Shown here piece by piece: positions 4,690 to 60,982 of a stretch of 64,000 nt of DNA. A program made the translations under genes and the position numbers. Every line of letters begins with the position of its first letter. Position 1 is the first letter of the stretch. The stretch covers positions 27,032,001 to 27,096,000 of the forward strand of contig OZ024758.1 of the NCBI GenBank assembly GCA_964016885.1, read 5' to 3'. This stretch comes from Eledone cirrhosa. Its lineage: Eukaryota. The notes under the pieces are model-generated. The model searched no databases and was not told the origin of the DNA. It saw nothing but the letters and a program-made list of their open reading frames with translations.

Positions 4690-5268
4690 ATTTAAACAAA
4701 ACCAAAAAATTGAGTAAAAGACATTAAGATACGTTTATATTCTGATTTTCTTTCGATGTGGGTCAGTTTTAGAAAGAGATTCATATTTATGTTATGGGAA
4801 ATTACAGAAAAATCATTTCCTAAATAGTATTATGTAATTTTTCTCTTTATAAAATATCAAAGGAGAAAATTCTCTGGGTAATATATATTTAAGGGTACGA
4901 ATTGTGTCTTAAAAGCATCTTTTGTTTTTCACAGACATATGCATATATATATATATTTATATATATATATATATATATATATATATATATATATATATAT
5001 ATATATATATATATTATATATATATATTATATATATATATATATATTATATATATATATATATTATATATATATATATATTATCCCATTCCTTCTAACTG
5101 GCCTCTATGTCACGTGATTGATTCTTTAGAATCGGCCATTTGACTGGAAGCAGTGAGAATTTCAGTACATAGAATCCAGTCCTCGCCTAGCTGTTCTTTC
5201 TACCGAATTATTATTTTTATATGAGCCGCCAGTGTCCGCGCATTGCCTGGAGGCTCAGCTGAGAATAG

Positions 5269-5350
5269 ACTCCCTGATGACGCAATGAATTCTCAACAGT
5301 TGGATTATGTAACTGTCTTTATCCCATTGCAGAAACTAATTAGTTGGAGT
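5269..5350 (+). ncRNA. Type I hammerhead ribozyme
   Basis: ACTCC-CTGATGA-C-GCAATG...CATTGC-A-GAAAC-TAATTA-GTT-GGAGT. Helix I ACTCC/GGAGT, palindromic helix III, predicted cleavage after GUU. Confidence 0.8.
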
Positions 5351-5836
5351 GAAAATTTAAGTAAGTAAATAAAAATTTTTTTTTTAATTTTTTTAAAAAT
5401 ATTTTCTTATTTTACGTCTTTTATATTATTGTTCTGCACCCTCCTGCATTGAACCACCTAGGTACTATGACATAACCTGTGTATTTGCTGGCATGGACGT
5501 GCATCTGTGCGCCTATGTTAGTTGATATATTAAATTATCTATATTTATCTCCAAATCACTGATTTGTCGAGCAAACCTGCCAAAACCACTTCAAAATTTT
5601 TTTTTTTTTTTTTTTTTTTGGGATGTTAGTAGGCGTCAGTCATCTTACCATCCCATTCCTTCTAACTGGCCTCTATGTCACGTGATTGATTCTTTAGAAT
5701 CGGCCATTTGACTGGAAGCAGTGAGAATTTCAGTACATAGAATCCAGTCCTCGCCTAGCTGTTCTTTCTACCGAATTATTATTTTTATATGAGCCGCCAG
5801 TGTCCGCGCATTGCCTGGAGGCTCAGCTGAGAATAG

Positions 5837-5918
5837 ACTCCCTGATGACGCAATGAATTCTCGACAGTTGGATTATGTAACTGTCTTTATCCCATTGCAG
5901 AAACTAATTAGTTGGAGT
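5837..5918 (+). ncRNA. Type I hammerhead ribozyme (second unit)
   Basis: Same motif as 5269-5350. Confidence 0.8.
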
Positions 5919-6227
5919 GAAAATTTAAGTAAGTAAGTAAAAAAATTTTTTAAAATTTTTAAAAAAATATTTTCTTATTTTACGTCTTTTATATTATTGT
6001 TCTGCACCCTCCTGCATTGAACCACCTAGGTACTATGACATAACCTGTGTATTTGCTGGCATGGACGTGCATCTGTGCGCCTATGTTAGTTGATATATTA
6101 AATTATCTATAAATATATATATATATATATATATATATATATATATATATATATATATATATATATATATATATATATATATATTTATATTATATATATA
6201 TATATATTATATATATATATATATATA

Positions 6228-6590
6228 TACATTCATTTATACATCGCTATTTCAGAGCACCAATCCTAATTTGTAATTTTTTTTGCTGGACTGGCAATCG
6301 CTCTGTATAATCAGTTCCTGATTATTCCTGGAATTCTATAAGAATCCAGCCTCTATAATTTTCGGCAGAGGCAGGGAGTACGTTGCTCTGAGGATCACCA
6401 ACAGTGTGAAACAGAATCTGTCAGCTTCTCTCCCTTCTTTTGCCGAAAAAAGAAGTAAGTGACATAGTCACTACTTTAAAATGATAGCGCAAGGTCTTCA
6501 AAATGTTTTTAATTAAACATACGGTATATTACCAAATATACTATACATACATTCATGTTTACATCGCTATTTCAGAGCACCAATCCTAAT
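6228..6590 (+). mobile_element. About 320-bp unit with about 45-bp terminal direct repeat between (TA)n tracts, containing a hammerhead
   Basis: ACATCGCTATTTCAGAGCACCAATCCTAAT occurs at 6241 and 6561. Confidence 0.65.
6385..6425 (+). ncRNA. Minimal type I hammerhead ribozyme
   Basis: GCT-CTGAGGA-T-CAC caaca GTG-T-GAAAC-AGAATCT-GTC-AGC; cleavage triplet GUC. Confidence 0.7.
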
Positions 6591-6604
6591 ATATATATAT
6601 ATAT

Positions 6605-7167
6605 ATAAAATATTAAAAAAATAATGAATAAAACAATGAAACAGTTCCTTGTATTAAACAAAAAAAGTTCATTATTTAACGATCGTTTCTAGGATATATA
6701 TGTGTTAGAATTGGCATGCATATTCAACAGATCTATGTACAAAATTATACAAAATTATACAAACTATCAAAATTAAATATACATACCAAACACATATATA
6801 TGCCGTCTTCAGAAATAATTATTTCTGAAGACGGCATATATATGTGTTTGGTATGTATATTTAATTTTGATAGTTTGTATAATTTTGTATAATTTTGTAC
6901 ATAGATCTGTTGAATATGCATGCCAATTCTAACACATATATATCCTAGAAACGATCGTTAAATAATGAACTTTTTTTGTTTAATATAAGGAACTGTTTCA
7001 TTGTTTTATTCATTATTTTTTTAATATTTTATCTTGACTCTGTATTCCGTTTATCTTTCACCGAAAGTGATTTTTCATTGCATCTCTTCTTTCCATGATA
7101 TCCGGATTACATTGAGTTCTTCATACGGATTGGACACTACAGTAAACTCTTGGTAGATTTATCTACA
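6605..7167 (+). mobile_element. Fold-back hammerhead element in (TA)n, about 210-bp inverted arms; same family as 58835-59340
   Basis: Near-perfect palindrome centred at about 6818 (CAGAAATAA|TTATTTCTG), then a unique 3' tail ending GGTAGATTTATCTAC(AT)n. Confidence 0.75.
6818..6966 (+). ncRNA. Type I hammerhead with long helix II insertion (mirror copy on minus strand at about 6671-6819)
   Basis: ATTATTT-CTGAAGA-CGGCATATATATGTGT...ACACATATATATCCTA-GAAAC-GATC-GTT-AAATAAT. Confidence 0.7.
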
Positions 7168-7260
7168 TATATATATATATATATATATATATATATATAT
7201 ATATATATATATATATACGGTATATTAACAAATGGAAACTATATTTATAAAAGCATATTT

Positions 7261-7323
7261 ATTTCATTATACATATTTCAAGGACACCAAGTTAAATTAT
7301 GGTGTGCTTTCATCAGATAAAAT
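7261..7323 (-). ncRNA. Type I hammerhead (family of 56373-56436) in a TA-flanked fragment at 7217-7335
   Basis: Reverse complement reads ATTTTAT-CTGATGA-AAGCACACCA...TGGTGTCCTT-GAAAT-ATGT-ATA-ATGAAAT. Confidence 0.7.
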
Positions 7324-58445: not shown

Positions 58446-58834
58446 TAAATTCAACAGAATTATTGCCACTGAAAATATGAAGAAAAGGAAGGAAAACGAA
58501 TTGTCAAATAATAATAAAAGTCTGTTCAATTCTGAACGTGTTTCATTTATCGTATCCTTGTGAACGACTTTGCGTGGGAATATAGATGAAGGAAATGGAG
58601 GCAAGTATAGTACCTCTTCCCCGCCTTAGAAAATGAAAGAGTGATAAAGGTGGCGGCGATGGCGGGCAGGAGGTTAAGATAAAGGTGGGAGAAATATTAA
58701 AAGATGTATGAACTTTCAATAGATAAGCTCAATGAGTATGAGAAAACAGGAAATAAAACCTGTTCAGTTAGATTCTAAGGACGCACAAGAACACACACAC
58801 ACACACATATATGTATGTATGTATATATATATAT

Positions 58835-59340
58835 ATATAAATTAATAAAATAATGAATAAACAAAGAAACAGTTCCTTATATTAAAAAAAATTCATCATT
58901 TTACGATCGTTTCTAGGATATATATGTGTTAGAGTTGGTATGCATATTCTATAGATCTATGTACAATATTTATACAAACTATCAGAGGGGAATATACATA
59001 CCTACACATATATATGCTGTCTTCAGAAAATTGTGTAGGTATGTATATTCCCTCTGATAGTTTGTATAAATATTGTACATAGATCTATAGAATATGCATA
59101 CAACTCTAACACATATATATCCTAGAAACGATCGTAAAATGATGAATTTTTTTTAATATAAGGAACTGTTTCTTTGTTTATTCATTATTTTATTGATTTA
59201 TCTTGACTCTGTTTTCCGTTTATTTTTCACCGAAAGTAGTTTTTGAATGCATCTTCTCTTTTCATGATATCCGGATTACATTGAGTTCTTCATACGGATT
59301 GGACACTACCGTAAACTTTTGGTAGATTTATCTCTCTCTA
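58835..59340 (+). mobile_element. Fold-back hammerhead element (family of 6605-7167); complete hammerhead on the minus arm at 58898-59030
   Basis: Reverse complement ATTTT-CTGAAGA-CAGCATATATATGTGT...GAAAC-GATC-GTA-AAAT. Confidence 0.75.
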
Positions 59341-59347
59341 TATATAT

Positions 59348-59902
59348 AGGAACAAGTAAGACCCCGACGGCTGAGCTCAAGCCGTTTCGACGGCTAATTC
59401 TGGACTGAATCAGCCGTCGAAACGGCTTGAGCTCAGCCGTCGGGGTCTTACATGTTCTTATTACCCACTCTACTACCCTAAGTATTGAGTACTTTGGTGC
59501 GTTATGGTCCACCTGGTTCCTTACCACATTTCCTCCGTTATATATATATATATATATATATATATATATATATATATATATATATAACGAAGGAAGTGTG
59601 GTAAGGAACCAAATGGACCATAACGCACCAGAGTACTCAATACTTAGGGCAGTAGAGTGGGAAATAGGAAAAGGTATGACCCCCGACGGCAGAGCTCAAG
59701 CCGTTTTGACGGGTATTTCTGGATTAAAATAGCCGTCGAAATATCGAAATAGTCCAGAAATAGCCGTCGAAACGGCTTGAGCTCTGCCGTCGATGGACCA
59801 TAACGCACCAGAGTACTCAATACTTAGGGTAGTAGAGTGGGAAATAGGAAAAAGTATGACCCCGACGGCAGAGCTCAAGCCGTTTCGACGGCTCTTTCTG
59901 GA
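59348..59902. mobile_element. Three copies of the half-hammerhead fold-back family (+ 59348-59540; - 59585-59902, rearranged)
   Basis: GAAACGGCTTGAGCTC(A/T)GCCGTCGGGGT and its reverse complement, repeated. Confidence 0.7.
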
Positions 59903-60109
59903 TATATATATATATATATATATTTAATATAATAACAGAGAAAGCTTTAAGCTAAATTCCGACTGGTAACCATCTCACTCAACAAACATTAGGATATACG
60001 TTAGTATAATCCCAATTTAGTGTTTGGGGTGCTAACTATATGTATTTTGTGGAAAACCAGTTGTATTATTTTATATGAGATATAATTAAAATTAAAATAT
60101 ATCTCTCTT

Positions 60110-60232
60110 TCCAAACAAATGTTTCATTATAAGTTTTCTACAAGTTGGGAGAATGTTTCCAGTTTATGTAGAAGCCTAACATATTTTCCTGTAAGAATAT
60201 ATGTAGGTGGGCACATATAAATCATCAGTGGA
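60110..60232 (-). ncRNA. Type I hammerhead with long helix II, within element 59925-60345
   Basis: Reverse complement TCCA-CTGATGA-T-TTATA...TATAA-T-GAAAC-ATTT-GTT-TGGA. Confidence 0.65.
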
Positions 60233-60672
60233 TGCCCATTAAACTTTGATATAAGAAAAAATTTCTTACGGCAGTTATTTTTCGTGTCCGCTAAGTCATC
60301 CCTTCACGCATCGAATGACCGCCAAATTTGAAATTCCAGCAGTCTTTATATATATATATATATTTTTATATATATACATATATACAATAATGAGAGGTAC
60401 ACAAATAACTCTATAACTCCTTCACGTTAGAGTAACCACGGAAGTATAGTGACTGCTTTCAAGCTAATACTATTTACACTTCTAGTCTTCCTTATCACCT
60501 TTCTGTAGCCTCTGTATCATTAATATCCTCTCCGCCTTCTGTGATATTTTTCATTGCTACAAGGGATTTAGTCCCATTTCTTGACCACTGTATCAAGTGA
60601 AAGGGTCTCCCTCCGCCCTTTCGAGATTCTCTCGCGCGATGCAGACCTGTTTTGAAATTTTTCCTTGAGGTG

Positions 60673-60764
60673 TTCCCTTGAAAAGTCGGCCTACCTCACA
60701 AAAATGTTACATCTCTATGATATAGGATTTTTGCATAGTAGCCACGAAACTGTACAGTCGGGAA
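60673..60764 (+). ncRNA. Degenerate type I hammerhead within TA-flanked element 60385-60815
   Basis: TTCCC-TTGAAAA-GTCGGCCTAC...GTAGCCAC-GAAAC-TGTACA-GTC-GGGAA; core differs from CTGAAGA at two positions. Confidence 0.55.
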
Positions 60765-60982
60765 TTTGAAGAAAAAATGGGTATTTATTTATGTCTTATA
60801 TTTCTTCTTACTTTATAATATATATATATATATATATATATATATATATTTATATATATAATATATATATTTATATATATAATATATATATTTATATATA
60901 TAATATATATATTTATATATATAATATATATATATATATATATATATATATATATATATATATATATAATATAAAACCATAG

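Follow-up and report, generated by a model that had tools for sequence, protein, structure and literature searches.

What are the short islands that separate the (TA)n tracts of this Eledone cirrhosa locus: independent ribozyme families, or truncated Penelope-like element (PLE) ends? A sequence-only reading of the window (the whole 64,000-nucleotide stretch analysed here) had seen type I hammerheads in most of them, grouped them into about ten non-coding families and left that choice open. The answer is both, since coding PLE ends lie among ORF-less tandem units. The islands are very probably (TA)n insertions of these two kinds, PLE 3' stubs and tandem units, both likely placed by Penelope RT/GIY-YIG enzymes and each carrying a predicted hammerhead, the blocks of which follow a non-circular S-G-C order in one family, K. 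TA-targeted PLE stubs and retrozymes with hammerheads are already known in kind; new here is family K's predicted scrambled-order hammerhead, for which we found no description from an animal genome. The features of the window are as follows.

5081..6112 (+): family A, ~555-nt tandem retrozyme, 1.8 units; type I cores 5274 and 5842, from which cuts are predicted after 5345 and after 5913
6230..6588 (+): family B, a unit of 320 nt and 38 nt of the next; core 6388; forms short tandems at other loci
6608..7166 (+): family C, inverted stub, Hydra-like PLE end; 119-nt stem II at core 6825, mirror core 6812(-), tail of 134 nt
7218..7337 (-): family D stub, Hydra-like PLE end; core 7316
8042..8302 (+): family E inverted stub, Hydra-like PLE end; cores 8236(+) and 8174(-), the minus arm bearing the tail
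19770..21654 (+): Neptune-like PLE, 5'-truncated; inverted pLTR piece, RT, linker, GIY-YIG, weak hammerhead 21365
21677..21858 (-): family D stub; core 21772, mutated GAAA box
22440..22729 (+): family F inverted stub; cores 22648(+) and 22569(-)
22760..23091 (-): family D2 inverted stub; GUGACGA at core 22852
24040..24570 (+): decayed hammerhead minisatellite, six 90-bp repeats; CUGAUGA and GAAA in each, without U-H site
25180..25380 (-): family G, damaged copy; CUCAUGA at core 25345
27888..28401 (-): family K, one 495-nt tandem unit; predicted SGC-order hammerhead 27997-27897 (U16.1 27953, H17 27952, GAAA 27935-27932, CUGAUGA 27908-27902)
28402..28929 (-): family H, partial 657-nt tandem unit, short inverted arm; core 28697
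41570..41713 (+): family E stub, cut at helix I; core 41582
54089..54216 (+): K relative, inverted stub limited to blocks G and C; cores 54154(+) and 54111(-)
55136..55355 (+): family D relative; core 55164
55546..56082 (+): family I inverted stub, second Neptune-like PLE; cores 55905(+) and 55781(-), tail encodes the ORF start
56265..56570 (+): family D stub, short inverted arm; core 56380
58840..59340 (+): family C relative, inverted stub; core 59026(-)
59924..60346 (-): family G, partial 745/994-nt tandem unit; core 60228, 96-nt stem II
60380..60817 (+): family J, partial ~592-nt tandem unit; U3-A8 core 60678

Hammerhead motifs and their genomic load

A strict scan for type I hammerheads (CUGAnGA, GAAA and U-H in the order C-G-S, with helices I-III) returned 12 motifs in the 64-kb window, compared to a mean of 0.06 and a maximum of 1 in 100 local dinucleotide shuffles. 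The pairings are also compensated: 97.4% are kept in the alignment of group A and 95.1% in that of group E, with double changes at two pairs each (14 of 32 and 14 of 48 rows used, respectively). On the basis of this excess over shuffled sequence and the covariation within families, the motifs are real, as had been claimed. A motif occurs in 17 of the 29 TA-flanked islands of 80-1500 nt (16 without the K-only island), which agrees with the earlier "most islands", and our tally of 13 families plus one 90-bp minisatellite makes "about ten" a fair estimate.

The helix I and helix III sequences quoted from the window were correct, and ten of the 16 examples listed there are recovered by the strict scan (cores 5274, 5842, 6388, 7316-, 8236, 22648, 28697-, 55905, 56380 and 60228-). 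Two more are family-wide variants that fall outside the strict scan: core 6825 of family C, which has a branched stem II of 119 nt, and core 60678 of family J, with a U3-A8 core (mostly UUGAAAA among the 14 printed copies). The remaining four are damaged or cut, in that 25345- reads CUCAUGA and helix I has lost its 5' strand in 41582, contains a mismatch in 55164 and is down to 3 bp in 59026-. The type I layout describes the 12 strict motifs but not that of family K, which had been missed, as had the PLE ORF inside the window (19770-21654).

Beyond the window, 40 evenly spaced stretches (400 kb in total) contained 22 strict motifs, or ~55 per Mb, extrapolating to roughly 1.6e5 motifs in the genome. 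At this density of ~1 per 20 kb, a large repeat fraction of the genome is unannotated. Two of the 22 sampled motifs (L319 and L330) look chance-like. Motif density in the window is 3.4-fold above that of the spaced samples (12 per 64 kb versus 22 per 400 kb) and hence atypical of the genome, so that the very large load expected earlier is upheld, but at about a third of what the window alone would give. Close Rfam scans of 5085-6600 and 27890-28920 listed no hammerhead at E<=10, and the best 150 of 439 rows from the whole window were microRNA look-alikes and one 5S rRNA.

Coding parents of the short stubs

The element at 19770-21654 encodes an RT with YVDD (19834-20427), a CX4CxxC linker and a GIY-YIG domain (20496-21107), while its tail encodes the ORF start and its hammerhead at 21365 is weak. 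For this PLE there are also a full copy of 1216 aa and 34,810 first-look candidates. Pfam gave no match for two ORF fragments of the window, and the EN+ PLE call is therefore based on motifs and homology; the Neptune and Hydra assignments follow linker motifs alone rather than an RT tree.

Extension in the 5' direction, a check proposed from the sequence, revealed Penelope ORFs upstream of families I, E, C and D. In these and in Nep1, an ORF with RT and C-terminal GIY-YIG precedes the hammerhead-bearing pLTR, and an inverted 5'-truncated copy and a one-ended tail complete the anatomy. The ORF end lies upstream on the same strand in 15/30 loci of family I, 4/25 of family C, 2/4 long copies of family E and 2/2 of family D; in family F, both 10-kb stretches (2/2) had no ORF upstream. 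Families I, E, C and D and the in-window element are thus truncated 3' ends of coding, autonomous PLEs, and the earlier label "non-coding" holds for families A, B, G, H, J and K but not for these five.

Several islands in TA are near-perfect inverted repeats. It would fit this symmetry to regard the short palindromic islands as MITE-like DNA transposons with chance hammerhead-like words; we give this idea hardly any credence, because the arms are asymmetric (with a one-sided tail), the junction sequence varies by copy and long copies extend into PLE ORFs, which contradicts it for C, D, E and I. Mapping of the 5' ends was informative for family E alone (the C and Nep1 references were mis-chosen and F offered 2 rows): 37 of 49 E arms stop at most 7 nt from the core, 29 nt below TATAAATA. 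The ends of family D (13/34 at 83-94 nt) and family I (17/30 at 49-82 nt) are suggestive, though query-biased.

ORF-less tandem units and insertion into TA

Families A, B, G, H, J and K are ORF-less tandem units, that is, non-LTR retrozymes, with units below ~1 kb (320-994 nt) that carry a single hammerhead and no RT ORF. Their periods are ~555 (A), ~320 (B), 745/994 (G), 657 (H), ~592 (J) and 495 nt (K), and the longest ATG ORFs measure 38-54 aa in G and H and 101 aa in K. PLE stubs and tandem units alike terminate at fixed sites against (TA)n, with 311 of 376 fixed ends abutting TA versus a background of 4.7%, in keeping with the PLE-driven, TA-targeted and abundant elements envisaged earlier. 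Of 17 fetched family A arrays, hand-picked from 37 scored of 1557 candidates in a way that favoured multi-unit arrays, 15 display the inverted-arm anatomy of PLEs, and in 15/15 of these one arm ends at unit position 345-348 and its counterpart at 467.

Could all islands nonetheless be ends of autonomous PLEs, the tandems being partial pLTR tandems or satellites grown by unequal crossing-over without an RNA circle? Five families are indeed PLE ends, the 90-bp repeat at 24040-24570 is part of a hammerhead that was multiplied on the spot, and variants that alternate within arrays (L096, L097 and L397), which point to duplication after insertion, indicate some growth in place. We nevertheless judge this improbable, since the A, G, H, J and K units run head to tail without an RT ORF between hammerheads (a check made with the Neptune protein alone for the family A loci), and arrays with the same fixed ends are scattered over many contigs, both of their inverted arms being multi-unit and having private variants in common. 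Such variants are fixed in every unit of L099, L102, L106, L368 and L397, and in both arms of L102 and L106. Unit divergence is 0.39% within an arm, 0.54% across arms and 0.94% between arrays in family A, and 0.64%, 0.53% and 1.69%, respectively, in family K. Uniform arrays are also expected from linear read-through RNA of a homogeneous source array. Few 5' ends lie within 5 nt of the predicted cleavage site (2/32 in A and 2/35 in K), and with Rayleigh p values of 0.21 (A) and 0.05 (K), there is no pile-up at this site.

From these footprints we infer a scheme in which a PLE protein would nick both strands of a TA tract, and reverse transcription would start at one of two fixed internal RNA sites. 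If both nicks prime, one per site, a head-to-head insert with the tail on a single arm would result. PLE transcripts as templates would leave mostly short stubs, those of family E likely running off a transcription start located at the hammerhead's 5' edge. A tandem retrozyme transcript might instead be cleaved by its hammerhead and ligated into a circle, the rolling-circle copying of which could produce arrays of up to ~13 units that stop at any phase; the retrozymes would be moved by PLE partners. Internal initiation at two sites and two-strand cutting have been reported for a PLE, as has insertion in vitro for which hammerhead activity is dispensable (PMC11167929). Metazoan PLE hammerheads are described in the literature as cleaving poorly in vitro, and of the 9 frog retrozyme dimers predicted in a 2026 preprint, just 1 cleaved.

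The predicted scrambled hammerhead of family K and known systems

Family K forms young 495-nt arrays (inverted at 4 loci only) in which the hammerhead blocks follow the order S-G-C, a non-circular permutation. An alignment of 16 sequences has 92.6% of its cells paired and double changes at 17 of 33 pairs, with slid controls reaching at most 48%, and in the window copy 34/34 pairs are Watson-Crick. Helices I and III cross (double changes at 5/7 and 1/5 pairs, respectively), and the minimum-energy fold, a model that excludes pseudoknots, did not form helix I. Stem II is not closed directly between blocks C and G, where only the 10.1-11.1 pair forms (13/16); rather, the strand after CUGAUGA and the strand before GAAA pair with separate upstream strands, yielding a four-way junction with two extra helices at stem II. 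K was at one time taken for a type II hammerhead and then for a half core, readings that were dropped once the alignment gave SGC. K was the sole match of a de novo SGC scan of the window, a permuted-order scan of 400 kb gave 20 rows (19 AT-rich noise and 1 K relative), and the K pattern had 0 matches in metagenome contigs.

We consider it somewhat more probable than otherwise that K represents an active retrozyme of an animal, driven by a predicted SGC hammerhead whose stem II is built as a four-way junction and which would be the first of its kind in a eukaryotic genome, and that the A and K arrays are the trace of RNA circles copied in rolling-circle fashion by Penelope enzymes that primed from both strands of a TA tract. 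The main competitor, to which we assign a minor share, is that K is a conserved, hammerhead-derived structure that has ceased to cleave and serves as binding or priming signal for a PLE protein, its arrays stemming from linear multimers. A junction with two additional helices in place of stem II, an inner fixed end ~12 nt past CUGAUGA and the dispensability of hammerhead activity noted above would suit such a role. By contrast, the core is kept while the stems covary (A15.1-U16.1 in 16/16, H17 as A or C in 16/16, CUGAnGA and GAAA in 14/16 each), and, as in assayed SGC ribozymes, there are a 3-nt linker connecting stems I and II and a stem I-II helix, here of 6 bp (5/6 pairs covary). A poor candidate, in our view, is an ordinary type I hammerhead that spans three units of a multimer (C of n-1, G of n and S of n+1): its pairings can be drawn without pseudoknots in tandem RNA, and covariation is blind to the unit from which each strand comes, but the three blocks lie at most 60 nt apart in one unit, two ~450-nt loops would be needed and the fold could not form in a monomeric circle. 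Should K cleave as the SGC reading predicts, non-circular RNA permutations would extend beyond environmental sequences, the hammerhead core would tolerate a junction at stem II, and Rfam and the type I-III descriptors would overlook thousands of genomic ribozymes.

Mobility of retrozymes via Penelope enzymes has been proposed since 2020 from coexistence and sequence likeness. Arrays with the PLE insertion signature offer a more direct footprint of this link, and the young families with intact partner ORFs render the proposal testable. A literature search restricted to papers outside subscription found no cephalopod hammerhead study and no eukaryotic SGC ribozyme, and the accessible text of the O. 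vulgaris repeat paper mentions the word ribozyme 0 times.

The stubs resemble known PLE-stub hammerheads in the many families that one genome holds, the palindromic helix III, an additional base or a mismatch at stem II, opposite-strand pairs 100-700 bp apart, predominance of solo truncated copies and U3-A8 core variant (here family J). They differ in the branched stem II of up to 119 nt, in the parents traced for five families and in number (2,000-9,000 motifs there versus ~1.6e5 here, a rough comparison across different descriptors). As far as the accessible parts of PMC8557442 describe Neptune and Hydra PLEs, these share the C-terminal GIY-YIG, (TA)n targets, inverted 5' copy and one-ended tail; the Neptune linker CX4CxxC is that of the in-window element, and the Hydra linker CxCX5C that of the parent of E, with C and D placed by similarity. 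The tails here are ~24-134 nt versus 30-40, with the clade set by motif rather than tree. The same source describes non-autonomous multicopy derivatives for Chlamys.

The tandem units share with non-LTR retrozymes, in the available portions of PMC7229834 and 10.64898/2026.07.22.740005, AT-rich ORF-less units with one hammerhead each, dispersed arrays and coexistence with PLEs; axolotl has 126,247 motifs there. Here the units span 320-994 nt in at least six families with putative circles, and the arrays, with their inverted arm, two fixed ends and TA target, show the insertion signature of PLEs, a feature that those portions do not mention. According to the sections of PMC10085705 at hand, which place no SGC hammerhead in the genome of a known organism, type-SGC HRIMA-1 matches K in its S-G-C order, 3-nt stem I-II linker, covariation and a helix that connects stems I and II at their far sides, whereas K has its partner strand for stem II on the 5' side of block S and carries two inserted helices at the 9/10.1 step.

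Type I hammerheads in the window and their genomic load

The sequence-only reading had listed 16 type I hammerheads in islands between (TA)n tracts, and the layout does exceed shuffled expectation: a strict type I descriptor found 12 motifs in the window, compared to a mean of 0.06 and a maximum of 1 in 100 local dinucleotide shuffles. Of those 16, ten satisfy this descriptor, two are variants common to their whole families, namely a 119-nt stem II (core at 6825) and a U3-A8 core (core at 60678) that is known from Penelope-like elements (PLEs) of Schistosoma (PMC4209133), and four are damaged or cut copies. 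A motif is present in 17 of the 29 short islands separated by TA tracts. Compensatory stem changes were seen in two alignments, each anchored on helix III and cleared of near-duplicate or truncated copies: two stem II pairs switch in the A group (14 of 32 rows used; 97.4% of cells paired, reached by 0/500 shuffles), as do two helix I pairs in the E group (14 of 48 rows used). The earlier observation holds, and its interpretation is partly correct. Six 90-bp repeats at 24040-24570 derive from a hammerhead whose U-H site has been lost, and intact relatives occur in two loci fetched from elsewhere in the assembly (L113 and L328).

A very large genomic load had also been supposed. A 400-kb sample, made up of 40 10-kb stretches spaced evenly over 19 large contigs, contained 22 strict motifs versus 0.4 in shuffles, i.e. 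~55 per Mb, a value with a wide error because matches cluster, or roughly 1.6 × 10^5 per genome when extrapolated to the 3.0-Gb assembly. The load is indeed large, but the window is not typical, its motif density being 3.4-fold that of the sample. Sixteen of the 22 sample motifs lie upstream of a TA tract and no more than 400 nt from it (22% for random positions), and fixed element ends contact TA in 311 of 376 cases against a background of 4.7%; the lower count for family B (17/41) probably includes read-through copies wrongly counted as ends. The fetched loci, which form a biased set totalling 1.54 Mb, gave 37 clusters from 211 distinct motifs, 20 of the clusters having at least two members.

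Other repeats accompany the hammerheads. A further family inserted in TA, in which palindromes are nested and arms inverted (59339-59901, 55356-55504 and 19380-19460), has an end resembling the family E tail, and no hammerhead was found in the pieces seen. A SINE-like repeat of ~190 bp is present in ~30 copies, often as inverted pairs or in tandem (7664-7856, 8510-9127, 33572-34541, 43431-44352 and others). Tandem arrays of ~60 bp (9892-10590, resembling the inverted island at 22145-22361), ~143 bp (18478-19230) and ~68 bp (44951-46084) were noted, as were a sequence resembling 5S rRNA at 32105-32223 (-) (108.9 bits) and a partially tandem ~520-bp repeat, 95-98% identical, at 581-3080, 52449-53257 and 37156-37412, in which no strict hammerhead match was found.

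Retrozyme arrays and stubs of Penelope-like elements

Families A (~555 nt), B (~320 nt), G (745/994 nt), H (657 nt), J (~592 nt) and K (495 nt) form head-to-tail units without a reverse transcriptase (RT) ORF. We fetched 17 family A arrays, picked by hand out of 37 scored regions: TA flanks both sides in all 17, and 15 carry an inverted arm, one arm end falling at unit position 345-348 and its counterpart at 467 in 15/15. This inverted-arm anatomy is the published anatomy of PLEs. Units resemble others of their own array more than those of different arrays. In several arrays all units share private variants, in two of these across both arms. Judging from sequence, unit likeness and private variants are best explained by a single circular template per insertion, which would underlie the arrays; copying from a uniform linear multimer is possible, as is some array growth in place after insertion. 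No accumulation of array 5' ends is seen at the predicted cleavage site.

Whether such islands might be truncated Penelope ends had been left undecided. Extension in the 5' direction led to Penelope ORFs for families I, E, C and D, and to none for family F in two stretches. The window itself contains one such element:

19770-21654: 5'-truncated Neptune-like PLE with RT, CX4CxxC linker, GIY-YIG, an inverted piece of the terminal repeat (pLTR) and a weak hammerhead at 21365

A full copy of this type encodes 1216 aa, the genome search met 34,810 candidates, and Octopus vulgaris supplies the closest named homologue of the window's retrotransposon protein (69% identity), which suggests an octopod host. 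The 1216-aa ORF (L031:2410-6060) has a long asparagine-rich insert preceding the RT, like that given for rotifer Penelope elements (PMC3846280). This Neptune-like family, the one with most candidates (window 21365; L001-L033), has a weak hammerhead with a 2-bp helix I in the copies displayed and is abundant and young despite it.

A sister element of the in-window PLE has family I as its end: the ORF end lies upstream at 15 of 30 loci, and the start of the ORF is encoded in the family I tail, as it is in a solitary tail of this family at 27171-27273. Two of four long family E copies have an upstream YRDD RT and a CxCX5C linker; PMC8557442 assigns this motif to the Hydra clade, whose target is (TA)n. 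ORFs similar to that of family E were reached at 4/25 family C loci and in 2/2 long family D copies. Inverted stub junctions vary between copies, and stubs are therefore built anew at each insertion. At 6/25 family C loci (L177, L180, L181, L187, L190 and L191, near 1500; L180 and L181 appear duplicated) the 3' end of the ~190-bp SINE-like repeat directly abuts helix I of the hammerhead, reflecting a chimera or else a target word common to both.

Family E arms stop at a preferred place, 37 of 49 ending at most 7 nt from the core, 29 nt below TATAAATA. Since a PLE RT begins within the RNA, close to the ORF start (PMC11167929), these ends are likely run-off from a transcription start within the pLTR, although a splice site or a structural stop may set them instead.

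Family K, a predicted S-G-C hammerhead

The core at 27908(-), absent from the 16 examples, has no GAAA after it. It belongs to family K, whose arrays of 495-nt units are 98-99% identical and have two fixed ends; 945 candidates were met. Its relatives repeat every 522, 530 or 614 nt, one occurs in the 400-kb sample, and no ORF was found upstream of them. The 17 sequences collected, less two rearranged copies and joined by the window copy, were aligned (16 in all) and revealed the order cleavage block (S), GAAA (G), CUGAUGA (C). Helices I and III cross, the linker from stem I to stem II is 3 nt long, and a 6-bp helix ties the far sides of these stems. Pairing extends to 92.6% of cells, with 17 of 33 pairs changing on both sides; 0/500 shuffles reach it and slid controls stay at or below 48%, controls that are somewhat flattering because the structure was derived from the same sequences. 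A15.1-U16.1 is kept in 16/16 and H17 is never G. All 34 pairs of the window copy are Watson-Crick, with a predicted cut after 27952.

Block order, crossing helices and linker match type SGC as described in PMC10085705, where genomes of known organisms are reported to have yielded no RNA of this kind, one bacterial GCS candidate excepted. Unlike that type, K replaces stem II, a defining feature, by a four-way junction that adds two helices, and one of these closes the remainder of the unit. On these sequence comparisons K probably acts as SGC hammerheads do, but because of stem II we do not class it as a plain member.

The literature searched, subscription papers lying outside its coverage, listed no survey of hammerheads in cephalopods, no retrozyme arrays showing the insertion anatomy of PLEs and no SGC ribozyme from a eukaryote. 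PLE hammerheads, retrozymes, TA targeting, inverted arms and tails are already published, and most of the window's hammerhead set is a dense example of this known type; the new part is family K and the PLE-like anatomy of the arrays.
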